A stretch of DNA of 42,347 nt from an uncultured delta proteobacterium (GTDB taxonomy: Bacteria > Desulfobacterota > WTBG01 > CAIYCZ01), in contig CAWDOY010000021.1 of the NCBI GenBank assembly GCA_963803975.1, forward strand, positions 1-42,347, written 5' to 3'. Below, piece after piece: positions 1,747 to 19,278 of the stretch. Positions within the stretch are counted from its first letter, which is position 1, and every line of letters begins with the position of its first letter. A model generated the notes under the pieces. The model had not been told where the DNA came from. It saw only the letters and a list, made by a program, of their open reading frames with translations, and made no database searches. Position numbers and translations under genes: made by a program.

Positions 1747-1852
1747 ATCCGGGTCCAGGAATAGCGATTTATTTCTGGAGGTGAAATAATAAAAACTGAT
1801 AATCGGGCCGTTATCTGCGCTGAAGAAGTGCAGATAGCGGCTTTTTTATTGG
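1747..1852 (+). promoter_or_regulatory. Repeated structured RNA leader/attenuator, copy 1 (subtype A)
   Basis: GGGTCCAGGAATAG..TATTTCTGGAGGTGAAATAATAAAAACTGATAATCGG, then hairpin GCCGTTATCTGCGCT/AGTGCAGATAGCGGC and TTTTTTATT. Recurs at 1923, 2635 and 13218. Confidence 0.8.
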
Positions 1853-1922
1853 ACAACTAAATTCGGGAATTTCTTATTAATCAGTAACCAAATATTAATT
1901 TAAAATACAATTACATAAGAGT

Positions 1923-2027
1923 ATCCGGGTCCAGGAATAGTTCTTAACCCTGGAGGTTAAATAATAAAAACTGATAATCGGGCCGTTATCTGCACACACG
2001 AAGTGCAGGTAGCGGCTTTTTTATTGG
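1923..2027 (+). promoter_or_regulatory. Repeated structured RNA leader/attenuator, copy 2 (subtype B), in tandem with copy 1
   Basis: Same conserved blocks; terminator GCCGTTATCTGCAC/GTGCAGGTAGCGGC + T-run; about 40 nt upstream of the microprotein ATG at 2069. Confidence 0.8.
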
Positions 2028-2068
2028 GGGTTTTATAAGAAATTAACAAGTAAATAGGTCGTGGCCAT

Positions 2069-2193
2069 ATGAAGGTACCTCAGGAATTAGTAGTACTGAT
2101 ATTTGTCGGAGGTCTAATCAGTTTTTTTTAATCGTGATTTTTTCAGGTAGAAAGAAAAAGGATAAAGACTCAGATAAGGAAAATAGCTCATAG
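2069..2193 (+). CDS. 'PQELV' single-TM microprotein, copy 1 (-1 frameshift in a T8 run at ~2122-2129)
   Basis: MKVPQELVVLIFVGGLISFF[fs]LIVIFSGRKKKDKDSDKENSS*. Adding one T restores colinearity with the paralogs at 2783 and 13357. Confidence 0.6.
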
Positions 2194-2268
2194 TGCCCTT
2201 TTGTTTGCAAAACAACAATTACAGTATCAATCATCAATAACTCAACAACAAACTATTTATTAAAGGAG

Positions 2269-2469
2269 TTGAAAATGAATGTTAGCAAAACAGTGAGAGA
2301 GTTGTTGCTCGGTGTGTTGGGTGGAACAGGTTGTATCTCGATACTACTGGGAATACAGGCGCTATCAAATAAGGGTAATTGGATAATCTTCATGGTAGGT
2401 GGTGTGCTTTTACTTGTGGGTGCACTCTTTATTGCTTCTAAATTTAAAGAGCCTGTTAATAGACCGTAA
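2269..2469 (+). CDS. Small two-TM membrane protein ('NKGNW' family)
   Basis: Two hydrophobic helices around a SNKGNW loop; AAGGAG RBS; paralog at 5248-5431. Confidence 0.75.
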   Translation: MKMNVSKTVRELLLGVLGGTGCISILLGIQALSNKGNWIIFMVGGVLLLVGALFIASKFKEPVNRP

Positions 2470-2477
2470 AAAGTGAT

Positions 2478-2615
2478 GCTTGTTGTTTGGTGCTAAATTG
2501 GGGGAACAGCAACGACATAAAGCATAATGCTATATTCGAATTTGCTGAACAATCTCCAGCAGATAAAGCTCCAGAGCATTAAAGAAATGGATGAAAACAA
2601 GTTTTGCTACAGTAA
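2478..2615 (+). pseudogene. C-terminal relic of the PH-like membrane protein family (type A)
   Basis: With frameshifts it reads CCLVLNWG NSNDIKHNAIFEFAEQSPADKA..ALKKWMKTSFA, matching SCLVLNWEHSDKKKHNAVFEFPEQASADTAAQALNKWMK of the 3292-3832 gene. Confidence 0.75.
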
Positions 2616-2634
2616 AATAAAATTACATAAGAGT

Positions 2635-2741
2635 ATCCGGGTCCAGGAATAGTTCTTAATCCTGGAGGTTAAATAATAAAAAGACTGATAATCGGGCCGT
2701 TATCTGCACAGACGAAGTGCAGGTAGCGGCTTTTTTATTGG
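2635..2741 (+). promoter_or_regulatory. Repeated structured RNA leader/attenuator, copy 3 (subtype B)
   Basis: TCCAGGA/TCCTGGA perfect stem, A-rich linker and terminator hairpin + T-run; about 40 nt upstream of ATG 2783. Confidence 0.8.
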
Positions 2742-2782: not shown

Positions 2783-2905
2783 ATGAAGATACCTCAGGAA
2801 TTAGTAGCAGTGATATTTGTCGGGGGCATCATTGTCTTTTTTTTGTTTGTGATTTTTTCAGGCAGAAAGAAAAAAAGTAAGAAAAAGACGCATGATAGAG
2901 AATGA
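2783..2905 (+). CDS. 'PQELV' single-TM microprotein, copy 2 (40 aa)
   Basis: MKIPQELVAVIFVGGIIVFFLFVIFSGRKKKSKKKTHDRE*; intact, TM helix plus Lys-rich tail; below the ORF-track size cutoff. Confidence 0.75.
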   Translation: MKIPQELVAVIFVGGIIVFFLFVIFSGRKKKSKKKTHDRE

Positions 2906-2952
2906 AACAAGTCTAACAGTAAATGATTCGTTGCAGGGAAGGGGTAAAGGCC

Positions 2953-3072
2953 ATGGACAGGGATAAAATTATTTTTTACGCAGTGCTTGGTACGGTAGTC
3001 GTTATTGTTTCTATTGTTCGATTTATCGGCTGGAGGAAAGAAAAAAGGGAAGAGAAGGAGAATAAAAAATAG
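2953..3072 (+). CDS. Single-TM microprotein (39 aa) with charged tail
   Basis: MDRDKIIFYAVLGTVVVIVSIVRFIGWRKEKREEKENKK*; purine-rich GAAGGGG RBS upstream. Confidence 0.6.
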   Translation: MDRDKIIFYAVLGTVVVIVSIVRFIGWRKEKREEKENKK

Positions 3073-3291
3073 CACCAAAACGCAGCCTAAAAACAAAGCT
3101 TGCTCCTTAGAACAATATATAAAATATGCAGAATGTCTCAATTAATACTCCGGGGCGGGATAGTGGGGATAGTCTATCTATAGATGGCACACAAAAAAGA
3201 AAATTAGCAGGTGATGATTTTAATGCGGTAACAATTTATAAATTAAAACTAACTAACTCGGCAACTTATATTTACCAGTAAGGAGAAAATT

Positions 3292-3832
3292 ATGTTGCAA
3301 GAATATCCTTGGATTATACCAGTCGTTTTTCTAATCATTGGAGGCGGTGTAACTCTTATATTTCGCCTTTTATAAAGATAAAAAGACCGAGGTTGAAGAA
3401 AAGCCTAAAGAGAAAGAGCTGACAGAAAGATTCTGCATGAGTGGCTATCTGGCTGGATTTCCAAATGCAGCTACCCCTGCTCCCTACGTTTTTTGTGGAG
3501 TGACTGAGGAGTCTTTTCTATTTTCAAAGGGGAGTAGAGGTGTAGAGATAGGCCGGATACAAAGAGATTCAATAAATAATATTATAGTTGTCAACAAATC
3601 TCAGGTCGTCCGGCAATTGACCGCAGAGGAAAAGACATCCTTTGGTAAGCTATTTGAGTCCCCAAAAGACAATAGCAGTTGTTTGGTTTTAAACTGGGAG
3701 CATAGCGATAAGAAAAAACATAATGCTGTATTTGAATTTCCAGAACAAGCCTCAGCAGATACGGCTGCACAGGCATTAAATAAGTGGATGAAACAAAAAC
3801 ACGTAAAAGAAAGCTTTGCTAAAGCCTCATAG
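3292..3832 (+). CDS. N-terminally membrane-anchored protein, PH-like family type A (frameshift at ~3372)
   Basis: AAGGAG RBS, then MLQEYPWIIPVVFLIIGGGVTLIFRL[fs]KDKKTEVEEKPKEKELTERFCMSGYLAGFP..., colinear with the intact paralog at 13567-14082. Confidence 0.75.
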
Positions 3833-3921
3833 CATGGCAAGCATTTCCATTGATTGAGTAACTATTAGTAATGATTTGGGAGGGGGAAGAGGGTTCTATT
3901 TTATAAAGGAGCGACATAAAG

Positions 3922-4491
3922 ATGGAAAGTGGGGAGTATTTTGCCATAGGAACATTCATATGTTTTGGAAGTGTAGTTGTTATACTTGCGATTCTGTCGA
4001 AAATTAAGCCTAAGCAGTCCGCTAAAGAAGTGTCCCATGAACTCCCAAAACCTAAACTACTAAAGAACTTTTACATAGGGGAATACCTCGGCAGTATTCC
4101 AGACGGCAGTAAAACATTTAATATCTCGTATTGTACTGTTGATGGAGACTCTTTTAAGTTTACCGGCGGAATAAGGGGCATTGAATTTGAACGCATACCA
4201 ATGGACAATGTTAATGAAATAATTGTTGAAGATAAATCCTTGATTGCACAGAGAGTCCCTGAAATAGAAAAATCAGCACTTAATAAAATTGTTTCTCCCG
4301 AAACTAAGCAGCGAAAATATTACTGCCTTTTCATTGATTGGAATGACAAAAAGGGGGCAAAACATTATTCCTTTTTTCAGTTCGGTGGCTCTGGAAAGGA
4401 AGGGTTAGCAAACACTGCAGCAAACACTTTAAAGAGATGGGTGTCACGAGAAGAGATAAATGGAGAGAGATTACAGTCCCAAGCTACATAG
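3922..4491 (+). CDS. Membrane-anchored protein, PH-like family type B
   Basis: N-terminal TM, then YLG..P / beta-rich core / CLxIDW...FQF and a C-terminal helix; paralogous to 3292, 4634 and 13567; AAGGAG RBS. Confidence 0.85.
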   Translation: MESGEYFAIGTFICFGSVVVILAILSKIKPKQSAKEVSHELPKPKLLKNFYIGEYLGSIPDGSKTFNISYCTVDGDSFKFTGGIRGIEFERIPMDNVNEIIVEDKSLIAQRVPEIEKSALNKIVSPETKQRKYYCLFIDWNDKKGAKHYSFFQFGGSGKEGLANTAANTLKRWVSREEINGERLQSQAT

Positions 4492-4633
4492 TTTAGTTAA
4501 AAGTTAATAAGCCAGTTAAAGAGGTCTTTATAGTTGTTGATGAAGAAAACGACAAAGGTAAATACTGACAAAGCCTCATAGCAGTCTGCAAATTCATAGA
4601 GTTTAAGATAATATTTACATAAAGGGGGACACC

Positions 4634-5224
4634 ATGGAAAAATATTTTGTCATAGGGTTATTCATTGTTATTGGAGTTGTGGTTGCTGTATTTTCGCTTA
4701 TGTCACGGAAAAAATCTGAGCACCAAGAAAATCAACAAATAAATAAACAGACAACTCACCAGACAAACGAACAACCACAGGCAATCCAGCCTCCCAAAAG
4801 GTTTTTTATGGGCAAATGTCTGGGGGGCATTCCGAATGGTAGTGTAGCCTATGAAGTTGCCTATTGTTCTGTTGATGGGGATACTTTCAAATTTACCAGC
4901 GGTATGCGGGGTATTGAATTTGCATCTATACCACGAGCCAAGATAAATACAATAACTGTTGAAGATAAATCTCTGATTGCCCAGAAATTGAATGACATAG
5001 ATAAGTCCACTCTTGATAAAATTATAAACCCCAGAACTAAACAGAATAAATATTGCTGCTTAGTCATAGATTGGAATGACAAGGATGGGACACGACAATA
5101 TTCCTTTTTTGAGTTTGCAGGCTCTGGGAAGCAGGGGTTAGCAACTGATGCAGCAAATGCATTCAATAGATGGATGTCACGAGAAGATATAAGTGGAGAG
5201 AGATTACAGCCCCAAGCTACATAG
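4634..5224 (+). CDS. Membrane-anchored protein, PH-like family type B, second copy
   Basis: Close paralog of 3922-4491 (YCSVDGDTFKFT.G.RGIEF...VEDKSLIAQ...IDWNDK.G...RWMSREDISGERLQPQAT). Confidence 0.85.
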   Translation: MEKYFVIGLFIVIGVVVAVFSLMSRKKSEHQENQQINKQTTHQTNEQPQAIQPPKRFFMGKCLGGIPNGSVAYEVAYCSVDGDTFKFTSGMRGIEFASIPRAKINTITVEDKSLIAQKLNDIDKSTLDKIINPRTKQNKYCCLVIDWNDKDGTRQYSFFEFAGSGKQGLATDAANAFNRWMSREDISGERLQPQAT

Positions 5225-5247
5225 ATTAATTATTTAAAGAGGTAACC

Positions 5248-5431
5248 ATGAAAGTTAATAAATCAGTAAAAGAAATATCTACGCATAGCTGTCTTGGGTG
5301 GTTCGGGTTTCATCATGTTAATGCTTGGGATAGAAGCGATAGCAAATAAGGGTAACTGGGTAATATTGATGGGATGTAGCGTGCTTCTTATAGCGGGAGC
5401 TATTCTTATTGCCAAAATAATTAAAGTGTAA
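5248..5431 (+). CDS. Two-TM 'NKGNW' family paralog (frameshift at ~5280)
   Basis: MKVNKSVKEI[fs]IAVLGGSGFIMLMLGIEAIANKGNWVILMGCSVLLIAGAILIAKIIKV*, aligns with 2269-2469; GAGG RBS. Confidence 0.65.
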
Positions 5432-5453
5432 GTAATTTCTATTACATGTAGCG

Positions 5454-5496
5454 ATTAACAGAGTGGGTTTCTATAAACCCACTCTGTTAATTTTTC
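5454..5496 (+). terminator. Intrinsic terminator closing the membrane-protein array
   Basis: Perfect 17-bp stem ATTAACAGAGTGGGTTT-CTAT-AAACCCACTCTGTTAAT followed by Ts. Confidence 0.85.
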
Positions 5497-5678: not shown

Positions 5679-6917
5679 TCACATGAAAATTGTATGTCCG
5701 CCTTTACCTTTGAGGATGTAAAGAAAAAGGGTAAGATATTCCCGGAGTTGCCTGGTCAGCAGAAAATTCTCCCGGACAAATTCCCGTCCAGTTCTACCCA
5801 TTTCCAACATTTTATCCCTTCGGTGCAACAGATAGCGAATACGGTGCGCGGCACCCTCTGGAGTTTTTACCAAGAAGCCGGTATGATGATTGATTACCTG
5901 TAGTCGTATGCCCCCCACGTCTCCGCCAATCACAGGCTTTCCCTTCCAGAGTCCCTCTGTCACGACAAGGCCAAATCCTTCTTTGGTTGATTTCTGGATA
6001 ATAATATTTGCTAATCGCTGTAAAGCGTTGATGGTCCGGTGTGCGTCCGGGGGAAGAAGCAGGATGTGTATATCGGGATCGTTAGCTGCATTTTCCAACA
6101 CCTCCTCAAGCACCTCCCGGCCTTCCGGGTCGTCAGTTGCTTCACCACCTGCAATGACCAGCTGCACTGGAATCACTTTGCGTACCAGCCGGTATGCCTG
6201 AATAACCCCGACCGGATCCTTAAATCGGTCAAACCGTGAAATCTGAACAATGAGAGGGCGGTTGGGGTCCAGTCCGAATTCCGTCCGGACGGCTTTAAGT
6301 TCCGGTGGTTCCAAGTCACAATTTTTTTCACTTAAAGGATCGATACTTGGGGCAATTATAAATTGAGGATGAGGCAGCACTTGGGCGAACTGACACATGG
6401 AAAAGATGCTTGCATCATATTTTTCCACAAAGGGGCAGAGGGTCTTCCACACCGGGCGAAACGGATGGCTAATATCAATATGTGCTCTCCATATCCATTT
6501 ATTTTTTCGTTTCCGGCAACACTTTAAGAGTGCAGCAGGCTGTGGATCATGAATCACGACAATGTCTGATTCCTCGAGAAGCGGTTGCAGTCTGGTACAA
6601 TTCTGCGAATTTATATCCTGATAGGTATCCCAGTCCTTTTTCTTAAGCATGGCGGGGTGCCCCTGCAGTCCATTGTGAATGGATTTGGTCATCGCAAAAA
6701 AATCATGGGTGCCCTGTATCACCTCCCAATGGGCATCAATACCAAGGTCGCGCATGAGCGGGATCATCCATGCAAGAATCTCGGCAACCCCTCCCCCTTG
6801 TTTGGTGGAATTGATATGTACCACACGGGTACCAGTAAGCCGCTCACCCAGCCTGCGCAACTGTTCAATGATAGGAGCACCAACAATTTCAGCGTAAGGA
6901 TCCAGCGACAGAATCAT
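5679..6917 (-). CDS. treT: Trehalose synthase, GT4 glycosyltransferase (TreT-like)
   Basis: HINSTKQGGGVAEIL, IHDPQP, WRAHID, QISRFDRFKDP, QKSTKEGFGLVVTEGLWKGKPV motifs. Confidence 0.9.
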   Translation of the reverse strand: MILSLDPYAEIVGAPIIEQLRRLGERLTGTRVVHINSTKQGGGVAEILAWMIPLMRDLGIDAHWEVIQGTHDFFAMTKSIHNGLQGHPAMLKKKDWDTYQDINSQNCTRLQPLLEESDIVVIHDPQPAALLKCCRKRKNKWIWRAHIDISHPFRPVWKTLCPFVEKYDASIFSMCQFAQVLPHPQFIIAPSIDPLSEKNCDLEPPELKAVRTEFGLDPNRPLIVQISRFDRFKDPVGVIQAYRLVRKVIPVQLVIAGGEATDDPEGREVLEEVLENAANDPDIHILLLPPDAHRTINALQRLANIIIQKSTKEGFGLVVTEGLWKGKPVIGGDVGGIRLQVINHHTGFLVKTPEGAAHRIRYLLHRRDKMLEMGRTGREFVRENFLLTRQLREYLTLFLYILKGKGGHTIFM

Positions 6918-7567
6918 CCTTTATTCCCTTTCTTTTGCAGAATTTTAGTCAGTTCCTTTCGCAGTTCAGCGAGTGTGTAGAAAGCAAAGTCAATAGAACC
7001 CATAGCCCGGATGTAATGTTCCCACGGTCCCCCCCCATTGATCAGCCATGCTGAAAAATCATCGACACCGAGTGGTGGGCGACGACGCGCTTCCAAAAAA
7101 TGAAAATAGATACTGCCGCTGGTCATTCCGCTTATTGCGGTGGCCAGTTCGTCTGGGTGGCTCATTCTCTGACCGGTATCAAAAACTATAGTCGTTGCCT
7201 CCATGAAATAGAATTCATGCCCCGGATATGCCCACGGCACAAACGGCCGTTCGCTTAATCGTTCCTCAATAATTTCCAGGGTAATAGTCCGGAGATCTTC
7301 AAGCGAGTGGTAGGAATAGGGATCAATTATCCCCAGACGCTCTGCCAGCACTTCATCATTCAGGTGATGTTTTGCCCAGACCGCAAAGTCATTCCGGTAA
7401 TCAGGGTAGTCAAAAACTGGAACAAGGAGTGTTTCGTAAAAATGGTGATATATAACATTGTGGCTGCACACAGCTATCCGGTCGCGCAGTTCCCTTAGGT
7501 TAACAGCGGCAGGCAACCCGCTCATCTGGGTCAAGAGGGTGCAATCTTTAATCTCAAATAATGTCAT
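6914..7567 (-). CDS. DUF5752-family protein (TreT-associated)
   Basis: Internally duplicated IYxHF...NDF/DDF.xW pattern; overlaps the treT start, the usual context for this family. Confidence 0.8.
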   Translation of the reverse strand: MTLFEIKDCTLLTQMSGLPAAVNLRELRDRIAVCSHNVIYHHFYETLLVPVFDYPDYRNDFAVWAKHHLNDEVLAERLGIIDPYSYHSLEDLRTITLEIIEERLSERPFVPWAYPGHEFYFMEATTIVFDTGQRMSHPDELATAISGMTSGSIYFHFLEARRRPPLGVDDFSAWLINGGGPWEHYIRAMGSIDFAFYTLAELRKELTKILQKKGNKG

Positions 7568-7578
7568 CTATAAACCTC

Positions 7579-8352
7579 TCAGCAATTCATTCTTTCCGGT
7601 TTATTGTCTTCCATGCTGGCAAGGATGCGTATTTTCTCCGCCAGAGAAACCGGTCCATCTACAACTTTGGAGCCGACAACTAATGGTGAATCACCTACGG
7701 TAAAGGCAATGCCACCGCGTTGCACAATCCACTGCATGGCAATGGCATCATTCTCGTCGTCGCCAGAGAAAATTAAATTCCCCCGGGAAGGTTTAAACTT
7801 GAGGTGCTTGCACAGCGCCTGGATCCCAAAAGCTTTGTTTATTTCCGGAAGAAATTGGATTTCTATTGCTTCCGGCCCATAAAACATTCTAATCTCGAAG
7901 ACAATCTCAAGCCTTCTAAGAAGTAAAGCGATCTTTTTTTTCGATTCCGCGGATGCATTACGGAAATGAAACGTAAAAGACCATTTTTTATCTTCAATGT
8001 CCAAACCAGGGCATGGTCTCAAAACTTCAATTTCAGGAATTACGGCGCTCCGTTTTGAAAAGAGCTTTAGTTCCAGCTTTTCTTCTGGATGCAAACTTTT
8101 TCCATCTGGGGTAATCCATTCCATCCCACTGCTGCCGCCAAGGAGTATACCAGGAATCCTGACCCGGAAGTAAAGATCCTCCAGCATTCTGCTGGAAAGT
8201 ATGGCAACATGCTGATGTGGCTGTACAGCTATCTCGGAGATAACCTCCTGACAGTCTGGATGTATCGCAGCTTTTGAACGGTCGGCAACTATGGTCGAGA
8301 GAGTACCGTCAAAATCAAAAATCCAGAGTCGTCTCTTATCGGTTACATACAT
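7579..8352 (-). CDS. otsB: Trehalose-6-phosphate phosphatase (HAD)
   Basis: FDFDGTL motif I, EDKKWSFTFHFR, NKAFG and GDDEND motif IV; directly downstream of otsA. Confidence 0.85.
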   Translation of the reverse strand: MYVTDKRRLWIFDFDGTLSTIVADRSKAAIHPDCQEVISEIAVQPHQHVAILSSRMLEDLYFRVRIPGILLGGSSGMEWITPDGKSLHPEEKLELKLFSKRSAVIPEIEVLRPCPGLDIEDKKWSFTFHFRNASAESKKKIALLLRRLEIVFEIRMFYGPEAIEIQFLPEINKAFGIQALCKHLKFKPSRGNLIFSGDDENDAIAMQWIVQRGGIAFTVGDSPLVVGSKVVDGPVSLAEKIRILASMEDNKPERMNC

Positions 8353-9838
8353 TTTGCGTTTTCCCTGTCTTTGGTACTTTTTCAATTTCCTCAAAAATTT
8401 TCCTGCCCCAGTGATAAACAGTATTCTTTTTAAGATGCGCCCGCATCCTTGTCATCCTGCTGCGGCGCTCTGCCTCCGGCATAGTGAGTGCTGCATAAAA
8501 AGCATCTGCAAGCTGATCAATGTCAAAAGGGTTAACCTGTATAGCATCCGGAAATTCGCGGGCAGCGCCGGTATATTTGGAGAGGATGAGCACTCCATCA
8601 CCGTCAATCCGTGATGATATGAACTCCTTCGCCACCAGATTCATCCCATCGTGGAGGGAAGTAACAACAACAATATCTGCCATACGGTATGCAGCAAGCA
8701 CATCATAGTAACCATGGTGTGCCCGTAAAAAATTTATTGAAGACCATTCTTCGGTATTATGCTGCCAATTAATCTCATCTATCAGGTCATCCAGATTATC
8801 ATTAAGTTCCCGGTACTCTTCAATATGGGTTCGGCTTGGTGCGGCAAGCTGCACAAAGGTTACGTTGGTTTTTAATTCCGGGTGCCGTTCCAGCAATAGT
8901 GAAAAGGCCTTAAGACGTTCCATTATCCCCTTGGTATAATCAATCCGGTCGGCACCTATAAATAATTTTGTTCGGGAAAGTGTCTCGCCCAGTTCTTTGG
9001 AGAATCTTTCCCGACTTCTTTTAACCGGCGGCGACTCTGCATCAGTTCCAATTTGAGGGAAATCAACACTGATCGGGAATGGGCGGACATACGTTGGCCT
9101 CCCGCCTCGAAAAACGCTGAAGTGTTCATAATCTACCTTTGCCTCAATCCCTCTGTCTACAGTATCCAGAAAGTTGTTACAGTGATTCTGGATATGAAAA
9201 CCCAAAATGTCGTTGCCCAGAAGGCCGTCGAGAAGTTCTTCTCCCCAGGGGAAAATCCGGAATGCTTCCCGATTAGGCCAGGGTATATGCCAAAAGTGAA
9301 TTAGCCTAAGATTTGGCTGATTATTTCTTAAAAGACGCGGTAACAGTGCAAGATGGTAGTCCTGAATAAAAACAATGGCGGGTTTACCATCGGCCTCCTC
9401 CAGCACTGTGTCACAGAAACGCTGGTTTACCTCCTTATATAGTTCCCAGTCGCTCCTGGAAAAATGAGGCCTGGCATATACGATATGGCATAGGGGCCAT
9501 AAGGCTTCATTGGAGAGTCCATAATAATACCCGTCCTCTTCTTTCCTGGTCAGCCACACTCTTCTCAACGTATATTTAGGAGATTCCTCCGGGAGATCAA
9601 TACGCCCTTTTTCATCAACGACTAAGCGGTCTGCTGACCCTGAACCGTGAGCAATCCATGTACCTCCTACGGCACTTACAATCGGTTCCAGGGCTGTAAC
9701 CATACCGCTTGCCGGACGTATTGACTTGATGCCATCACCTACATGTTCATGAAGACAAGGTTCGCGATTGGAAACAATAATAACTTTTGACCCCTTTGCA
9801 ATGCTGGAAATAAAGGCTCCTAATTGTTTAGCATTCAT
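8336..9838 (-). CDS. otsA: Trehalose-6-phosphate synthase (GT20)
   Basis: VSNREP, YYGLSNEALWPLCH, IQDYHL, FWHIPWP, DRIDYTKGI, SLHDGMNLVAKEF. Confidence 0.95.
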   Translation of the reverse strand: MNAKQLGAFISSIAKGSKVIIVSNREPCLHEHVGDGIKSIRPASGMVTALEPIVSAVGGTWIAHGSGSADRLVVDEKGRIDLPEESPKYTLRRVWLTRKEEDGYYYGLSNEALWPLCHIVYARPHFSRSDWELYKEVNQRFCDTVLEEADGKPAIVFIQDYHLALLPRLLRNNQPNLRLIHFWHIPWPNREAFRIFPWGEELLDGLLGNDILGFHIQNHCNNFLDTVDRGIEAKVDYEHFSVFRGGRPTYVRPFPISVDFPQIGTDAESPPVKRSRERFSKELGETLSRTKLFIGADRIDYTKGIMERLKAFSLLLERHPELKTNVTFVQLAAPSRTHIEEYRELNDNLDDLIDEINWQHNTEEWSSINFLRAHHGYYDVLAAYRMADIVVVTSLHDGMNLVAKEFISSRIDGDGVLILSKYTGAAREFPDAIQVNPFDIDQLADAFYAALTMPEAERRSRMTRMRAHLKKNTVYHWGRKIFEEIEKVPKTGKTQNVCNR

Positions 9839-10484: not shown

Positions 10485-10621
10485 GCGGATACGATTTAGA
10501 TGCATTTTTGAAAGTATCCGGATAATCTGCGAAACAACGATGAGGTCCCCTTTTATAAATCTTAGTTGACTACGCGCTGGGGTTCGAGCGAACGTTGTTA
10601 GATAGTAAGCGAGGCACTTTT

Positions 10622-11962
10622 ATGAAGAAAAAATTAGAAAATGATCCTCAAATGGAAACCATTCTAAGCAGTATTGCTGATGGGGTATTTACTATTGACC
10701 ATGAAAAAAACATAACATCTTTCAATAGAGCAGCTGAAAATATTACCGGTATCAAGCGGGCTCAGGCAATTGGGAAAAAATGTTTTGATGTAATGCGTGC
10801 CAGTGTCTGTCAGAACAGTTGCACCATGGAGAGGGCTATTAAAAAAGCTACGCCTGTTATCGTCCTTCCTCTTACCATTATTAACAACCATGGTGACATT
10901 GTGCCCATAAGTATAACAGCGGCAGCACTGAAGGATAGTGGGGGCAAGGTTATTGGGGGGGTGGAGACTTTTCGTGATTTATCAGAACTGGAAGGCATGA
11001 GAAAGGAGTTAACTAGGCAATACACGTATCATGATATTATTGGTAAAAGTCCGCCAATCCAAAGGCTTTTTGCTATTCTTCCTGATATAGCTGAAAGTGA
11101 TAGTGCTGCTTTGATCCAGGGGCCAAGCGGTACCGGCAAAGAACTTTTTGCACTTGCAATACATAACATCAGTAATCATAAAGATGGTCCCTATGTCACA
11201 GTAAATTGTGGGGCACTTCCTGATACATTATTGGAGTCTGAGCTTTTTGGATATGTCAAAGGAGCCTTTACAGATGCAAAAATCGATAAACCCGGCCGTT
11301 TTGCACGGGCAGAAGGCGGGACGCTGTTTTTAGATGAGGTGGGAGAGTTGCCCCTTGCAGTTCAGGTAAAACTTCTCCGGGTGTTACAGGGCGGAGAATA
11401 CGAACCGTTAGGAGCAACACAATCGTTAAAAGCAAATGTTCGAATCATTGCTGCAACTAACCAGGACTTATTACAATTATTATCCGAGGGAAGATTCAGA
11501 GAAGACCTTTATTATCGTCTTAATGTAATAAAATTAACTTTACCGTCACTATCTCAAAGAAAGGAAGATATCCCCCTGCTGGTTGAACATTTCATTCATA
11601 AATTTAACGTAAAGAAGGGTAGAACAATTGCAGGTGTATCCCGTCAGGTTATGCAGTTTTTTATGAGTTATGATTTTCCCGGTAATATTCGTGAACTTGA
11701 AAACATGATTGAGCATGCCTTTATATTATGCCGCGGATCTATTATCAATGTTGATCATCTCCCACAGGAGATAAAGAGCAAAACAACTATTGTAAAACCA
11801 ATTTCATATCAGGGTGCCCCGCCCCTTAAAAGTGCCGAGGCTGAGATAATTCACAATGTGCTCATAAAACATAATGGCAATAGAGCGAAAACTGCTGCTG
11901 AACTCAGCATTGATAAGACAACTCTTTGGAGAAAGATGAAAAAATATAATTTAAAATTCTAG
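10622..11962 (+). CDS. PAS-AAA+-Fis-HTH sigma54-dependent activator, OrpR-like
   Basis: PAS with C-x8-C-x3-C (CFDVMRASVCQNSC), GPSGTGKE, ESELFGYVKGAFTDA, LFLDEVGE, FREDLYYRL, and HTH NRAKTAAELSIDKTTLWRKM. Confidence 0.92.
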   Translation: MKKKLENDPQMETILSSIADGVFTIDHEKNITSFNRAAENITGIKRAQAIGKKCFDVMRASVCQNSCTMERAIKKATPVIVLPLTIINNHGDIVPISITAAALKDSGGKVIGGVETFRDLSELEGMRKELTRQYTYHDIIGKSPPIQRLFAILPDIAESDSAALIQGPSGTGKELFALAIHNISNHKDGPYVTVNCGALPDTLLESELFGYVKGAFTDAKIDKPGRFARAEGGTLFLDEVGELPLAVQVKLLRVLQGGEYEPLGATQSLKANVRIIAATNQDLLQLLSEGRFREDLYYRLNVIKLTLPSLSQRKEDIPLLVEHFIHKFNVKKGRTIAGVSRQVMQFFMSYDFPGNIRELENMIEHAFILCRGSIINVDHLPQEIKSKTTIVKPISYQGAPPLKSAEAEIIHNVLIKHNGNRAKTAAELSIDKTTLWRKMKKYNLKF

Positions 11963-12925: not shown

Positions 12926-13217
12926 CACTGGATCTGGCTGAACGAATGAAAACCGCTCGTAATCTGCTGAAGCAAAGGGACAGCGATCTGGTCAGGCAAT
13001 AGGTTGATAGAGACTTTGCAAACTACAGCAACATTTTGACTCAATGTCAGCACAGGCAAGTGCAGAAGGTAATCCTGATGAAAAAAGAAATTGATAAAAT
13101 CCGAGCCGGCAGAAAATAAGACCCACACATTAAATTGTGGGGCTATTTCTCATGATACACCAACTGCCAGCCAGTATGGTTTTTGGTATCTAATTAATAA
13201 AACTAAATATTGTACTT

Positions 13218-13319
13218 GGGTCCAGGAATAGCAATTTATTTCTGGAGGTGAAATAATAAAAACTGATAATCGGACCGTTATCTGCGCTGAAGAATTTCAG
13301 GTAGCGGCTTTTTTATTGG
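13218..13319 (+). promoter_or_regulatory. Repeated structured RNA leader/attenuator, copy 4 (subtype A)
   Basis: GGGTCCAGGAATAGCAATTTATTTCTGGAGGTGAAATAATAAAAACTGATAATCGGACCGTTATCTG...CAGGTAGCGGCTTTTTTATTGG; about 40 nt upstream of ATG 13357. Confidence 0.8.
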
Positions 13320-13356
13320 TGACTCTACTGCATTTAAAAAGGAAGGGGTAGCATAT

Positions 13357-13494
13357 ATGCCTGCTGTACCTCAGGAATTAGTAGTAGCTATAATCATTGG
13401 TGTTGTCATTGTTTGTTATGTTTTATTGATTTTTTCAGGTAAAAACAAAAAGAATGAAGACCAGGAAGGGAAAAAGGAAATTAGCGGGCGGTGA
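13357..13494 (+). CDS. 'PQELV' single-TM microprotein, copy 3 (45 aa)
   Basis: MPAVPQELVVAIIIGVVIVCYVLLIFSGKNKKNEDQEGKKEISGR*; GAAGGGG RBS; PQELV...IFSG conserved with 2069 and 2783. Confidence 0.75.
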   Translation: MPAVPQELVVAIIIGVVIVCYVLLIFSGKNKKNEDQEGKKEISGR

Positions 13495-13566
13495 TTTTAA
13501 TGCGGTAACAATTTATAAATTAAAACTAACTAACTCGGTAACTTATTTAACAGTAAGGAGGCAATT

Positions 13567-14082
13567 ATGCTTAAAGAATATTCTTGGCTTATACCAGTCG
13601 TTTTTTTGGTCGTTGGTGGCAGTGTAACTTTTATATTAAGCCTTCTCAATAAAGGCAAAAAAACTGTCGCAGAGGAAACGCCTAAAGAGATTGAACTGAC
13701 AGAAAGGTTCTGCATGAGCAAATATCTGTGCGGATTTCCAAACGCAGCCACCCCTGCTCCCCTCGTTTTTTGTGGAGTGACCGAGGAGTCTTTTCTATTC
13801 TCAAAAGGGAGTAAAGGGGTAGAGATAGGCCGGATACATAGAGATTCAATAAATAATATTATAGTTGTCATAAAATCTCAGGTCCTCCACCAATTGACGG
13901 CTGAAGAAAAGTTGTCCTTTGGCAAGCTATTTGAGTCTCAAAAAGACAATAGCAGTTGTTTGGTTTTAAACTCGGAGAATAGCGATAATAAAAAGTCTAA
14001 TGCAGTGTTTGAATTCCCAGAACAAGCCTCAGCGGATAGTGCAGCACAGGCACTAAAGAAATGGATGAAACAAAAATCATAG
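13567..14082 (+). CDS. Membrane-anchored PH-like family protein, type A (intact)
   Basis: AAGGAGG RBS; TM helix, then a domain nearly colinear with 3292-3832. Confidence 0.85.
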   Translation: MLKEYSWLIPVVFLVVGGSVTFILSLLNKGKKTVAEETPKEIELTERFCMSKYLCGFPNAATPAPLVFCGVTEESFLFSKGSKGVEIGRIHRDSINNIIVVIKSQVLHQLTAEEKLSFGKLFESQKDNSSCLVLNSENSDNKKSNAVFEFPEQASADSAAQALKKWMKQKS

Positions 14083-14288: not shown

Positions 14289-14331
14289 ATGCACTACTGC
14301 TTTGATATGCAGCCTCGGCTGCTTTTTGCCG

Positions 14332-16725
14332 TTACTTTCTTGTGGAAGTTATAAATTTCGGCTTAAACAGCGAGATAAAACTGGGTACGACAAAAATCGC
14401 TCCCAGCATGTTAATTATCAGCACGATTGCCAGCAGCAAGCCCATCAAAGCCTGGAACATCAGCTTGGAGATTACCCAGAACCCAAGACCGCAGATAAGG
14501 GTCAACCCGATATACAGCACCGCCTTGCCGGAGGTCCCCAGCGATATTGCAATCGCGTCATTCAGGTCACGTTTGTTATCCCGGTATTCCTCAATAATAC
14601 GGCCGACAATATAAATCGAATAGTCAACACCAAGCCCCATGCCCACTGACGCGATCGGCAGCGTCGCCGTGGTCAGCGGTATCGGCGGGTTCATGAGGGT
14701 CATGAACGACTGGGTCAAAAACGTTGAGGTCAGAAGCGGCAGGGTGATAAAAATCGCCGCCACAAAGGACTGAAAGAAAAAGGCTACAAAAAAGAAGCAC
14801 ATGATGTAGGCAATGATGGTGGTCAGGCCGTTGTATTTCAGCAGAGTCTCATTGATACCTGCCTGGACGCCTGCCGTGCCCCCTGCCAGACGATACTTGA
14901 AGTTAAAAGTTGTCTCCGCTTTATTCACTATATCCTTTACCGTCTTGGTGGAGACCGACTCCTCCGCAATAAATTTATTGATCCGGTCAATAACTTCTCT
15001 CAGGCTGTCCGCTGTCTTGTCACGCAGGTACAGGACGATATTTGCGCGCTGCTGGTCAGCGTCGAGATATTTATCCCAGGCGCCGGGAGCTCCGGTAGTG
15101 AGAATAACCCATTGGAGCATTTTGAGCTGCATATCTATGGTCGGGGCAAATATCCATTTAGGGTCAGAATCTCTCACCGCCCGGTTGTAATTCGGAATCG
15201 GGCCGGCAAGGCTCCCCACGAACATGACCCGCTGGTTGGGCGTGCGCGACATGTAGCGCACAAATTTCAGTATGTCGCGAAGAACGGTCGGGGTCATCTG
15301 GGTAAATGGTTTGTCACCTTCGCACACTATGTACATGGGGTTCAAAAGCGGCATATTAAAGATAAGCCGGAACGCATCCACGTTGTAGCGGTGAAACGGC
15401 CACAGGATTTCAGACCCCGGCACCACGTTTCCCACGGGGAGCTTCAGCTGCTGGAAGTAGCCCCAGGTGCAGACAATCAATACAATGACCAGAATGGGGA
15501 TTTTTCCTTTCCGGCAGATAAAATGGCCAATGCCATGCAGCATCCTGTCCAGGAACCCCTCCTTTTCCGGTGTTGTCTGCACTGGGAAATAGGAAAACAT
15601 TATGGGCAGCAGAAAAAACGCGATAAATATCGTGCCGAAGGCCCAGAACGCGCAGGATAGTGTTATCTTGTACAGGATATCGATCGGCGTAATGGCGATA
15701 ATCAGAATGCCCGAGGCATCGGTTATAATTCCTGCGATGCCCGGGACGAACAGGCTGGTAATAACTTTCTTGCAGGCTGCCTTGCCATCGCCAAGGATTA
15801 TGGACTCTTCCCGGTAGCGCTTCACCACCTGCACCGAGTGCGATGCAGCCATGGCGCCGATGAGAAACGGAAAGACCAGCACCAGCGGGTCAAGGTTGAA
15901 GTTGAGCATGGCAAGAAATCCCAGGCCCCACACCGCGCTGATCAGCGCTGCAAAAACCGGCATCACCATACCGCGCCTGGTGCGGAAAAACAGAAAAAAC
16001 ATCACCAGCATGGCGATAATGGTGTAGACAAAAATCTTCACTGCCTGCGGCACATAGCTTTCAATGTAGCCGATGTGCATGGGATTGCCGGCTATGGCAA
16101 TAAAATGATTATCATCTTCATATTTCTTACGCAACGCCTGCAGCTCTTTGAAGGTAACCCGGTAATCCATCTTCTCTTCAAAAAAATCTACCTGGATTAA
16201 TGTCTTCGCGCTGTCGAGAGATACCAGCCCCGGGTAGGTAATGGGGTTTCCATAAATAATCAGTCTGAGCTTATTGATATCTTCCGGGGTTTGCGGAACT
16301 TTGGGAAACATAACCGGAACAGATGTGTAGCCCTCGGGCAGTGCTTTGAAATCCCTTATTTGCGAACTTGCTATGGAGATAATCTTGTAGCGGTCAACTG
16401 CATTAAGTTGAAACATATCCTCCGTGATGTTCTTTACCTTTGTCAGGGTTTCAACATTAAAGATATCCTTGTATTTACCCTTGGGTTTCACCCCCACCAT
16501 GATAAGCACCTGGTTGGCACCGCCAAACTTGTTGCGGATCTCATTGTGCAGCTTTATGTACGGGTGCTGCTGCGGCAGCAGGTCAGCGAACACGGTCTTA
16601 ATCGACAGCTTCCGGCACTGCCAGCCGAAAAAGATGGTGATGATGATGGCAAGGATGAGGTAGATGTTGCGCTTCTCTATGACATGATCTGCAACACGTT
16701 CCATGAATGTTTCTATTTTACCCAT
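14332..16725 (-). CDS. MMPL/RND-superfamily transporter (intact copy)
   Basis: About 800 aa, two-repeat 12-TM topology, FGGAN and GMGLGVDYSIY motifs; GGGGAG RBS before MGKIETF. Confidence 0.9.
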   Translation of the reverse strand: MGKIETFMERVADHVIEKRNIYLILAIIITIFFGWQCRKLSIKTVFADLLPQQHPYIKLHNEIRNKFGGANQVLIMVGVKPKGKYKDIFNVETLTKVKNITEDMFQLNAVDRYKIISIASSQIRDFKALPEGYTSVPVMFPKVPQTPEDINKLRLIIYGNPITYPGLVSLDSAKTLIQVDFFEEKMDYRVTFKELQALRKKYEDDNHFIAIAGNPMHIGYIESYVPQAVKIFVYTIIAMLVMFFLFFRTRRGMVMPVFAALISAVWGLGFLAMLNFNLDPLVLVFPFLIGAMAASHSVQVVKRYREESIILGDGKAACKKVITSLFVPGIAGIITDASGILIIAITPIDILYKITLSCAFWAFGTIFIAFFLLPIMFSYFPVQTTPEKEGFLDRMLHGIGHFICRKGKIPILVIVLIVCTWGYFQQLKLPVGNVVPGSEILWPFHRYNVDAFRLIFNMPLLNPMYIVCEGDKPFTQMTPTVLRDILKFVRYMSRTPNQRVMFVGSLAGPIPNYNRAVRDSDPKWIFAPTIDMQLKMLQWVILTTGAPGAWDKYLDADQQRANIVLYLRDKTADSLREVIDRINKFIAEESVSTKTVKDIVNKAETTFNFKYRLAGGTAGVQAGINETLLKYNGLTTIIAYIMCFFFVAFFFQSFVAAIFITLPLLTSTFLTQSFMTLMNPPIPLTTATLPIASVGMGLGVDYSIYIVGRIIEEYRDNKRDLNDAIAISLGTSGKAVLYIGLTLICGLGFWVISKLMFQALMGLLLAIVLIINMLGAIFVVPSFISLFKPKFITSTRK

Positions 16726-16880
16726 AGCCTTAATCTCCCCTGTGAGGTTCCCTGACAATGGATGAGAAGCTATCGCATCCCGTTTCCATTACTGTTCTTT
16801 GTATAACCGGCAGCAGCTATCAAAAGCAGGGCCGAACATAAGCCCTGCTTTTGATATGCAGCCTCAGCTGCTTCTTGTTG

Positions 16881-19278
16881 TCACTTTCTTGTGGAAGTTA
16901 TAAATTTCGGTTTAAAGAGCGCGATAAAACTGGGTACGACAAAAATAGCTCCCATCATGTTAATTACCAGCACGATTGCCAGCAGCAGGCCCATCAATGC
17001 CTGGAACATCAGCTTGGAGATTACCCAGAACCCAAGACCGCAGATAAGGGTTAAGGCGACATACAGAACCGCTTTCCCGGACGTTCCCAGCGATATTGCA
17101 ATCGCGTCATTCAGGTCACGTTTGTTATCCCGGTATTCCTCAATAATACGGCCGACAATATAGATCGAATAGTCAACCCCAAGCCCCATGCCCACTGACG
17201 CGATCGGCAGCGTCGCCGTGGTCAGCGGTATCGGCGGGTTCATGAGGGTCATAAACGACTGGGTCAAAAAGGTCGAGGTCAGCAGCGGCAGAGTGATAAA
17301 GATCGCCGCCACAAAGGACTGGAAGAAGAACGCAACAAAGCAAAAGCACATGATGTAGGCAATGATGGTGGTCAGGCCGTTGTATTTCAGCAGTGTCTCA
17401 TTGATACCTGCCTGGACGCCTGCCGTGCCCCCTGCCAGACGATACTTGAAGTTAAAAGTTGTCTCCGCTTTATTCACTATGTCCTTTACCGTCTTAGTGG
17501 AGGCCGACTCCTCCGCAATAAATTTATTGATCCGGTCAATAACTTCTTTGAGGCTGTCCGCTGTCTTGTCACGCAGGTACAGGACGATGTTTGCGCGCTG
17601 CTGGTCAGCGTCGAGATATTTATCCCAGGCGCCGGGAGCTCCGGTAGTGAAAATAACCCATTGGAGCATTTTGAGCTGCATATCCACCGTAGGGGCAAAT
17701 ATCCATTTAGGGTCAGAATCTCTCACCGCCCGGTTGTAATTCGGAATCGGGCCGGAAAGGCTCCCCACGAATATGACCCGCTGGTTGGGGGTCCGCGACA
17801 TGTAGCGCACAAATTTCAGTATGTCGCGAAGAACGGTCGGGGTCATCTGGGTAAATGGTTTGTCACCTTCGCACACTATGTACATGGGGTTCAAAAGCGG
17901 CATGTTAAAGATGAGCCGGAACGCATCCACGTTGTAGCGGTGAAACGGCCACAGGATTTCAGACCCCGGCACCACGTTTCCCACGGGCAGCTTCAGCTGC
18001 TGGAAATAGCCCCAGGTGCTGACAATTAATACAATGACCAGAATGGGGATTTTTCCCTTGCGGCAGATAAAATGGCCAATGCCATGCAGCATCCTGTCCA
18101 GGAACCCCTCCTTTTCCGGTGTTGTCTGCACTGGAAAGTAGGAAAACATGATGGGCAGCAGAAAAAACGCGATAAATATCGTGCCGAAGGCCCAGAACGC
18201 GCAGGATAGTGGTTATCTTGTACAGGATATCGATCGGCGTAATGGCGATAATCAGAATGCCCGAGGCATCGGTTATAATTCCTGCGATGCCCGGGACGAA
18301 CAGGCTGGTAATAACTTTCTTGCAGGCTGCCTTGCCATCGCCGAGGTTTAACGGACTCTTCCCGGTAGCGCTTCACCACCTGCACCGAGTGCGATGCAGC
18401 CATGGCGCCGATGAGAAACGGGAACACCAGCACCAGCGGGTCAAGGTTGAAGTTGAGCATGGCAAGGAACCCCAGGCCCCACACCGCGCTGATCAGCGCT
18501 GCAAAAACCGGCATCACCATGCCGCGCTTGGTGCGGAAAAACAGAAAGAACATCACCAGCATGGCGATGATGGTGTAGACAAAAATCTTCAATGCCTGCG
18601 GCACATAGCTTTCAATGTAGCCGATGTGCATGGGATTGCCGGCTATGGCTATAAAGTGATTATCATCTTCATATTTCTTCCGCAACGCCTGCAGCTCCTT
18701 GAAGGTAACCCGGTAATCCATCTTCTCTTCAAAAAAATCTACCTGGATTAAGGTCTTCGCGCTGTCGAGAGATACCAGCCCAGGGTAGGTGATGGGGTTT
18801 CCATAAATAACCAGCCTGAGCTTATTGATGTCTTCCGGGGTTTGCGGAACTTTGGGGAACATAACCGGAACAGATGTGTAGTCCTGCGGGCAGTGATTTG
18901 AAATCCCTTATTTGCGAACTTGCTATGGAGATAATCTTGTAGCGGTCAACTGCATTCAAGTTGAAACATATCCTCAGTGATGTTCTTTACCTTTGTCAGG
19001 GTTTCAACATTAAAGATATCCTTGTACTTACCCTTGGGTTTCACCCCCACCATGATAAGCACCTGGTTGGCACCGCCAAACTTGTTGCGGATCTCATTGT
19101 GCAGCTTTATGTACGGGTGCTGCTGCGGCAGCAGGTCGGCGAACACGGTCTTAACCGACAGCTTCCGGCACTGCCAGCCAAAAAAGACGGTGATGATGAT
19201 GGCGAGGATGAGGTAGATGTTGCGCTTCTCTATGACATGATCTGCAACGCGTTCCATGAATGTTTCTATTTTACCCAT
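16881..19278 (-). CDS. MMPL/RND transporter, tandem duplicate with four +1 frameshifts (~18210, ~18348, ~18888, ~18957)
   Basis: Highly similar to 14332-16725 over its full length and 4 nt longer (2398 vs 2394); most substitutions are synonymous. Confidence 0.8.

Follow-up and report, generated by a model that had tools for sequence, protein, structure and literature searches.

The nhaA-I motif was discovered in 2017 (Weinberg et al.; PMC5737381) and has been included in Rfam ever since; nhaA-I RNAs were later described as Li+-I riboswitches (White et al., 2022, Sci Rep 12:19145; PMC9646797). Control of the ribosome binding site is the presumed mode of action of most Li+-I members, and nhaA follows in 356 of 944 cases (Supplementary Table I in PMC9646797). 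Rare nhaA-I variants with an intrinsic terminator stem, reported only from Deltaproteobacteria and followed by genes of unknown function, were named Na+-II. The 'hypo' RNA of Desulfobulbus propionicus was a strong Na+-triggered ON switch in single-round transcription, and the authors argued for a ligand different from Li+ where such a terminator variant precedes a gene of unknown function (PMC9646797). Here we analyze four copies of a structured RNA in a stretch of 42,347 nucleotides (nt) from an uncultured delta proteobacterium (contig CAWDOY010000021.1 of assembly GCA_963803975.1, positions 1 to 42,347 of the forward strand), hereafter termed the window. We conclude that the four copies very probably belong to the nhaA-I family, in the terminator-coupled form that has been published, and work by an ON-switch mechanism. 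This level of confidence covers the RNA class and the mechanism, and not the ion, which is considered separately.

The RNAs were compared to Rfam with cmscan, where RF03057 (nhaA-I, Li+-I riboswitch) has a gathering cut-off of 37 bits. Copies 1 and 3 both scored above this cut-off (Table 1). The 5' GGGU, the AGGU and the loop UCGGGCCG of the copies were found to align to conserved positions of RF03057, and the linker of the copies contains an insertion of 9-11 nt relative to the RF03057 alignment. The conserved nucleotides, which are the 5' GGGU, the AGG after stem P1 and the loop CGGGCC followed by a G, were all present in copies 1-3, and their columns were invariant or almost so in an alignment of 37 sequences; copy 4 has CGGACC in the loop. 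No other riboswitch family was found at E ≤ 10 by cmscan in positions 1600-2900 and 13100-13500, and the DUF1646 motif (Na+-I) was likewise without a match at E ≤ 10 in these two regions. An earlier note on this DNA, made from the sequence alone, had stated that the element matches no riboswitch consensus. That claim has to be withdrawn in view of the RF03057 match and of the terminator-bearing build already published as Na+-II (PMC9646797). The RNA class is not new, and the copies are a new set of nhaA-I members.

Repeats, terminators, folds and open reading frames (ORFs) were computed on the contig; all positions are given in window numbering and all copies are on the + strand. The four copies proposed in the earlier note were recovered as stretches of about 100 nt at approximately 1747-1850, 1923-2027, 2635-2741 and 13214-13320, each consisting of two hairpins and an overlapping intrinsic terminator. 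Their full extents, taken from the matches of a covariance model termed R1 (see below), are 1751-1847, 1927-2022, 2639-2736 and 13218-13314. The copies are embedded in longer repeats. Positions 1724-1852 are 72% identical to 1899-2027 and 88% identical to 13191-13319 (repeat group D7), positions 1901-1970 are 97% identical to 2613-2682 (D16), and positions 1966-2129 are 88% identical to 2680-2843 (D8).

The terminator scan called terminator-like sites at 1805-1843, 1980-2018 and 2694-2732, and around copies 1-3 there were six terminator sites compared to 2.4 ± 1.6 in shuffled sequences. The terminator and stem P2 use the same nucleotides and are mutually exclusive. The minimum free energy folds of copies 1, 2 and 3 (-43.1, -39.7 and -39.8 kcal/mol, with z scores of -6.29, -5.79 and -5.44, respectively) all contained P1 together with the terminator, and the default state of these copies is therefore OFF. 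The fold of copy 4 was much weaker (-24.9 kcal/mol, z score -1.96) and its terminator was not called by the terminator scan, which we ascribe to its loop of 13 nt. Copy 4 also has an A instead of a G at position 13274 in the P2 loop.

Several details that had been read from the letters alone held when the copies were compared. P1 is conserved among the copies, the variable position of the terminator alternates between U-A and U-G, and the G-U pairs are compatible with the + strand only. The terminators are located within a 5' leader, with T-runs ending 47, 47 and 43 nt upstream of the start codons (ATG) at 2069, 2783 and 13357, and the RNA is sense to the downstream genes. Copy 2 starts 79 nt past the T-run of copy 1, and because no ORF was listed between the two, copies 1 and 2 are arranged in tandem. 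No promoter site was called on the + strand between the terminators and the ATGs in a scan whose 12 sites in total are no more than the 12.8 expected; the same scan called one weak site at 2591-2618, upstream of copy 3. One metatranscriptome run (12% of the sampled words) gave five pieces of 33-201 nt in contigs of 83-204 nt with 90-99% likeness, none of which was located on a riboswitch copy.

We extracted 38 distinct stretches comprising aptamer and terminator and aligned 37 of these, leaving out a copy from locus L008 that differed only in the T-run. For P1 and P2, 93.5% of the cells in the alignment were paired and 11 of the 13 pairs had changed on both sides, which was not reached by any of 500 shuffled alignments; slid-register controls gave only 36-56% paired cells. 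The terminator helix of 12 pairs was paired in 90.9% of the cells, with six pairs changed on both sides. The GAUAAU/GUUAUC helix, which is P2 of the family, thus competes with the terminator as had been suggested, and both helices are backed by covariation. P1, P2 and the terminator, and thereby the proposed terminator/antiterminator switch, are supported by the 37 related sequences. A pseudoknot between the loop UAG and the linker CUG, also proposed in the earlier note, was not supported, as 66% paired cells were not above the level in shuffles. Pairing of the 5' GGUCC with the loop GGGCC was possible in 99.5% of the cells, and no pair had changed on both sides, as the loop is almost constant (a single G to A change among the 37 sequences). 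Two nucleotides of this GGUCC helix belong to P1 and covary with the bases they pair with there, and the contact could at most consist of three pairs (G-C, G-C, and U-G) as a tertiary interaction.

The covariance model R1 was built from the 37 aligned sequences. Since it was built partly from the window copies, their own scores (76.8, 74.3, 75.7 and 76.3 bits for copies 1-4) are high by construction. With filters off, R1 found exactly the four copies in the window, on the + strand only. In the complete 4.25-Mb genome the same four copies were the only ones found, and the next match scored 21.3 bits (E 0.38).

When compared to the published Na+-II RNA, the window copies share the two-hairpin aptamer, the 5' GGGU, the P1 base UCCAG/CUGGA (GGGUCCAG...CUGGAGGU), the AGGU at the start of the linker and the loop CGGGCC. 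As judged from the published template, the terminator takes its 5' arm from P2 in both, namely from the 3' half of the loop together with the 3' arm of the stem. An nhaA-I-type aptamer followed by an intrinsic terminator overlapping P2 was found in the window by the scan, by covariation and by the folds, and it was found in a deltaproteobacterium upstream of genes without a known family. The host phylum is thus alike, and the downstream genes are 'hypothetical' in both. The window copies differ from Na+-II in the sequence of the P2 stem, in a linker of 19-21 nt compared to 10 nt, and in being present in four copies with two in tandem, whereas Table 3 of a review of tandem riboswitches has Na+-II among the classes not found in tandem (PMC9481103). 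They also differ at the position corresponding to C54 of the D. propionicus RNA, which directly precedes the CGGGCC loop on its 5' side (wild-type and M4 templates in the supplement of PMC9646797) and is the only position at which a change has been shown to determine Na+ selectivity. This mark was looked for and was absent, and we therefore filed the copies under nhaA-I and not under Na+-II proper.

With Li+-I RNAs the copies share the match to the RF03057 covariance model and a U at the specificity position, and tandem doublets and one triplet have been reported for Li+-I (PMC9646797; PMC9481103). The expression platform differs, being a terminator without a transporter gene behind it in the window and mostly a ribosome binding site and nhaA in Li+-I, and the P1 base is CC/GG in the window and not GC/GC. 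The usual gene context of nhaA-I, a leader of cation-transport genes and chiefly of nhaA, was not found in the window; this context is an association and not a structural requirement. Na+-I riboswitches (DUF1646 motif; PMC9337991) have a similar two-hairpin shape, the same ON logic and a link to sodium, but their conserved nucleotides differ in lower P1 and in the P2 loop (PMC9646797).

By analogy to the validated D. propionicus relative, each unit would be an ON switch. Binding of an alkali cation would hold together the aptamer formed by the 5' GGGU, P1, the linker starting with AGG, and P2 with its CGGGCC loop, and the stabilized aptamer would keep the GCC-GUUAUC segment within P2. In the absence of the ion, this segment would pair with its downstream complement to form the intrinsic terminator, and transcription would end about 45 nt before the first ORF. 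At copies 1 and 2 the RNA polymerase would have to pass two independent switches, from which a sharper dose response is expected; a sharpened response has been proposed for tandem riboswitches generally and for Li+-I doublets (PMC9646797; PMC9481103). Copy 3 would gate the main cluster at 2783-5431 and copy 4 the duplicated cassette at 13357-14082. With the change at 13274 and its weak terminator, copy 4 may be leaky, impaired, dead or retuned. Changing C,G to U,U in the loop of the D. propionicus RNA (M3) or a published pair of G-to-A changes at other strictly conserved G nucleotides (M1) abolished or greatly weakened the response (PMC9646797).

RF03057 was found in one of four genomes of the family (only in G000, the genome of the window), in eight of 21 genomes of the order and in 17 of 42 genomes of the class, G000 being counted in all three. 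Relatives of the same build in the class scored 40-53.6 bits with this model. The other three genomes of the family gave no match with the Rfam model, and R1 found no copy in G003, which is of the same genus and 91% complete; among these three genomes R1 gave one weak match of 33.5 bits, in G002. In the class-level genomes doublets and triplets were common, with a spacing of about 105-210 nt. Three copies in a row were found in G004, G035, G036, and G038, and two in a row in G005, G006, G009, G020, G028, G029, and G037.

A wider sample was obtained by scanning DNA for a degenerate P2 motif, using one genome per species. This gave at least 119 stretches, from which 80 loci were fetched. The motif favours P2 stems that resemble GATAGT/GTTAGC, and the counts should not be read as a census. 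R1 matched 59 places in 45 of the 80 loci. Most record titles were Thermodesulfobacteriota or "delta proteobacterium", and a few among the matches listed were Nitrospiraceae, Nitrospirota, Thermodesulfovibrionales, Elusimicrobia, Edwardsbacteria, Rokubacteria, Spirochaetia, and Polyangiaceae. A run of at least four T followed in 37 of 37 sequences of the class-level set and in 46 of 59 among the matches listed, where up to four copies in a row were found (L087).

Some loci of the wider sample deserve mention in their own right. R1 found nhaA-I copies in records titled Elusimicrobia (L046), Nitrospiraceae (L062), Nitrospirota (L074), Edwardsbacteria (L086), Rokubacteria (L111), Spirochaetia (L084), and Polyangiaceae (L110). 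A terminator was evident mainly in L046, L062, and L086, the copies in L074 and L084 are truncated by the end of the record, and binning errors in the metagenome-assembled genomes are possible. Aptamers with C at the specificity position were found in tandem at L029:1501-1919 (two of three, the third being of the U type), at L032:1477-1720 and upstream (three of three), and at L073:671-868 (two of two).

The genes behind the copies are listed in Table 1. None of the ORFs behind the copies had a Pfam match above cut-off. The family that we term A had 43 homologues in a set of 5.8 billion proteins; none had a Pfam family and, apart from one empty label, no name went further than 'hypothetical protein', all being metagenome proteins. 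The AlphaFold2 model of family A, made from an alignment of 19 sequences, had a predicted local distance difference test (pLDDT) score of 82 and a predicted template modeling (pTM) score of 0.70. It consists of an N-terminal helix followed by a seven-strand domain that is closed by a C-terminal helix and has two short helices inserted. The best solved structures matched by Foldseek were PTB/PH domains (top match 4dx9, E 1.7e-4, target template modeling score 0.54), and a search of the ESM Atlas gave unnamed clusters only, with a weak lead to bPH_11 (0.82). The predicted fold is a generic PH/PTB fold and names no function. The frameshift near 3370 was seen relative to the gene at 13567-14082 in an alignment with 13540-13760, and could be an assembly error.

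Table 1. Features of the window. Strand and remarks are given where available; aa, amino acids.
Feature	Position	Strand	Remarks
Riboswitch copy 1, aptamer	1751..1816	+	5' GGGU, P1, AGG linker, P2 with loop CGGGCC; RF03057 38.8 bits
Intrinsic terminator, copy 1	1805..1847	+	17 pairs and T-run (terminator scan); 5' arm shared with P2 (3' half of the loop, 3' arm of the stem)
Riboswitch copy 2, aptamer	1927..1991	+	RF03057 36.1 bits
Intrinsic terminator, copy 2	1980..2022	+	Terminator scan; fold
20-aa ORF, shortened copy of one-helix membrane peptide (MKVPQELV...)	2069..2131	+	Behind copy 2; repeat D10 aligns it with 2790-2874 and 13367-13451
66-aa ORF, two-helix membrane protein, family B	2269..2469	+	Behind copy 2; no Pfam match over cut-off
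Remnant of family-A C-terminus	2487-2582		Behind copy 2
Riboswitch copy 3, aptamer	2639..2705	+	RF03057 38.2 bits
Intrinsic terminator, copy 3	2694..2736	+	Terminator scan; fold
40-aa small membrane peptide	2783..2905	+	First ORF behind copy 3; no Pfam match over cut-off
39-aa ORF	2953-3072		Behind copy 3
Family-A gene (membrane anchor and PH-like domain)	3292..3832	+	Frameshifted, 2-nt gap near 3370; open part 3437-3832, 131 aa
Family-A paralogue, 189 aa, intact	3922..4491	+	Alignment A1; no Pfam family
Family-A paralogue, 196 aa, intact	4634..5224	+	Alignment A1; no Pfam match over cut-off
45-aa ORF, family-B relative	5294..5431	+	Repeat D12, BLASTP; last gene before terminator 5453-5492
TreT-type synthase, DUF5752, OtsB (trehalose phosphatase), OtsA (GT20)	5679-9838	-	Convergent with the riboswitch operon
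Riboswitch copy 4, aptamer and weaker terminator	13218..13314	+	P2 loop CGGACC, A at 13274
45-aa small membrane peptide	13357..13494	+	First ORF behind copy 4; repeat D10
Family-A gene, intact, 171 aa, N-terminal membrane helix and PH/PTB-like domain	13567..14082	+	Behind copy 4

The trehalose genes are located next to the switches, which fits a salt or osmotic-stress neighbourhood, and with filters off R1 found no riboswitch copy on the - strand of the window. Between the trehalose genes and copy 4 there is a gene for a sigma-54 activator with a PAS domain (10595-11962, + strand). The stretch around the end of the small peptide gene and the first part of the spacer before family A is 93% identical between 3194-3269 and 13471-13546 (D14), compared to 83-85% for the coding DNA that follows (D13 and D4), and may be a conserved regulatory or RNA element. 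Further downstream, 14301-19257 contains a tandem duplication of 2.55 kb with 93-99% identity that includes, on the - strand, a gene for an MMPL/RND-type membrane protein, which is intact in the first copy (808 aa) and split into 422 aa and 278 aa in the second.

The gene context is conserved in relatives. Family A was found behind riboswitch arrays of other genera in L006, L008, L011, and L017, and in frameshifted form in L007, while relatives of family B were found directly behind arrays in L028, L029, L030, and L032. The 40-aa peptide had weak relatives behind arrays in L027 and L034, which overlap and represent one place, and the 45-aa peptide at 13357 had weak relatives in L011, L016, and L020 (one place). 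Small peptides were also seen by eye behind arrays in other loci. Close relatives of family A were found in six metagenome loci, of which three hold at least 940 nt upstream of the gene; a riboswitch was present in two of these three, once as a doublet.

For a broader view we picked 30 longer first ORFs behind the same build from the wider sample. Among the matches listed, nine of the 30 encode ion transporters or channels (three CitMHS, two NhaB, two NhaA, one Na_H_Exchanger, and one ClC). The rest included one OtsA, two DctQ, three with Cache-like starts below the Pfam cut-offs and four without a match, the others being mixed. Genes for NhaB (PF06450, E 1e-92 and 2e-89) are located directly behind nhaA-I-type riboswitches at L054:663-1418 and L069:1-755. 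nhaA-I RNAs have been stated never to be associated with nhaB (PMC9646797).

Several observations weigh against the copies being functional members of the terminator-coupled nhaA-I group. Only two of the four copies pass the Rfam cut-off, with copy 2 falling 0.9 bits below it and copy 4 giving no RF03057 match at E ≤ 10 when 13100-13500 was searched, and a gathering-threshold run over the entire window listed copy 3 alone. All four copies have U and not C immediately 5' of the loop (GAUAAU-CGGGCC). The linker of the window copies is the longest in the class-level set, where the range is 7-21 nt as measured by a rough script that placed the linker start wrongly in some rows (e.g., L056 and L087) and took the wrong specificity letter in L058. 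No ion-transport gene was found by Pfam behind the window switches, and copy 4 combines a G to A change in the conserved loop with a weak terminator. The last point would suit an origin of the copies as relics of segmental duplication, with terminators that are constitutive or inert and nothing sensed. The locus is indeed rich in duplicated and decayed pieces, such as the 20-aa peptide, the remnant at 2487-2582 and the frameshifted gene at 3292-3832, and the 91% complete genome of the same genus has no copy. However, copies 1-3 keep all nucleotides that are invariant in the family as well as strong terminators, the differences among the copies sit in loops or preserve pairing, and the arrangement of RNA plus gene is kept across several genera, and we find it very unlikely that the copies are mere relics. 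That the element is instead a protein- or ribosome-dependent attenuator, in which the A-rich linker is a protein binding site and no ion is sensed directly, is hardly plausible. The linker in the window is unusually long and A-rich, at 19-21 nt, but in relatives both its sequence and its length are free to vary and only the AGG at its start is kept. Furthermore, the ORF lists contain no leader peptide inside the element, and the nhaA-I family binds ions in vitro without protein (PMC9646797). We therefore retain the assignment to terminator-coupled nhaA-I switches.

The position 5' of the loop does not settle which ion is sensed, because all four copies have U and, in the published work, a C-to-U mutation yielded an RNA responsive to Li+, Na+ and NH4+. 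In most nhaA-I RNAs, U takes the place of the C54 of the D. propionicus variant, and it was the C54U mutant (M4) that responded to the three cations (PMC9646797). The U was also the common nucleotide in relatives. In the class-level set it was found in 33 of 37 sequences with C in the other four, and among the 59 places of the matches listed 52 had U and six had C, while the remaining one was a mis-read of the script and is U by eye. By analogy to the D. propionicus RNA we lean towards Na+ as the ion most likely sensed by the window copies; a response broadened to Na+, Li+, and NH4+ would be possible, if rather less probable. It seems improbable that the copies are ordinary Li+-I riboswitches, selective for Li+, with a terminator as their expression platform. 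Such selectivity would fit the U in all four copies, shared with most Li+-I RNAs and not with the Na+-selective D. propionicus RNA, where the change to U let Li+ trigger the switch (PMC9646797), and it would fit the predominance of U where the copies are of the terminator type (33 of 37; 52, or 53 when corrected, of 59 among the matches listed). On the other hand, the mutant responded to Na+ and NH4+ as well, which means that U confers no Li+ selectivity in that scaffold, and terminator variants before unknown genes were argued to respond to a ligand different from Li+ (PMC9646797). The neighbours are trehalose genes in the window and genes for NhaB, MscS-like and compatible-solute-type proteins in relatives, and salt or osmotic stress therefore fits better than a rare toxic ion.

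Taken together, the U-type terminator-coupled nhaA-I RNAs might form a functionally distinct subgroup whose cargo of tiny one- or two-helix membrane peptides and membrane-anchored PH-like proteins, located by trehalose genes, is a salt or alkali-ion stress module, with copy 4 as a sensor retuned or disabled by its G to A change; we put this combined interpretation forward tentatively and consider it rather unlikely. In Thermodesulfobacteriota, most RNAs of the terminator-coupled build are of the U type (33 of 37, and about 52 of 59 among the matches listed), and the only tested Na+-II RNA has C. Because most terminator-coupled copies carry U, that RNA does not speak for ion specificity in the form that is common in nature. 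C-type tandem arrays, nhaB behind this type of riboswitch and copies outside Deltaproteobacteria all differ from what is in print (PMC9646797; Table 3 of PMC9481103 for the tandem arrangement). The switch marks conserved and uncharacterized membrane proteins (the small peptides, the two-helix family and the PH-like family, for which Pfam has no entry) as probable salt- or ion-stress genes, and it thereby provides a testable expression condition for these proteins.

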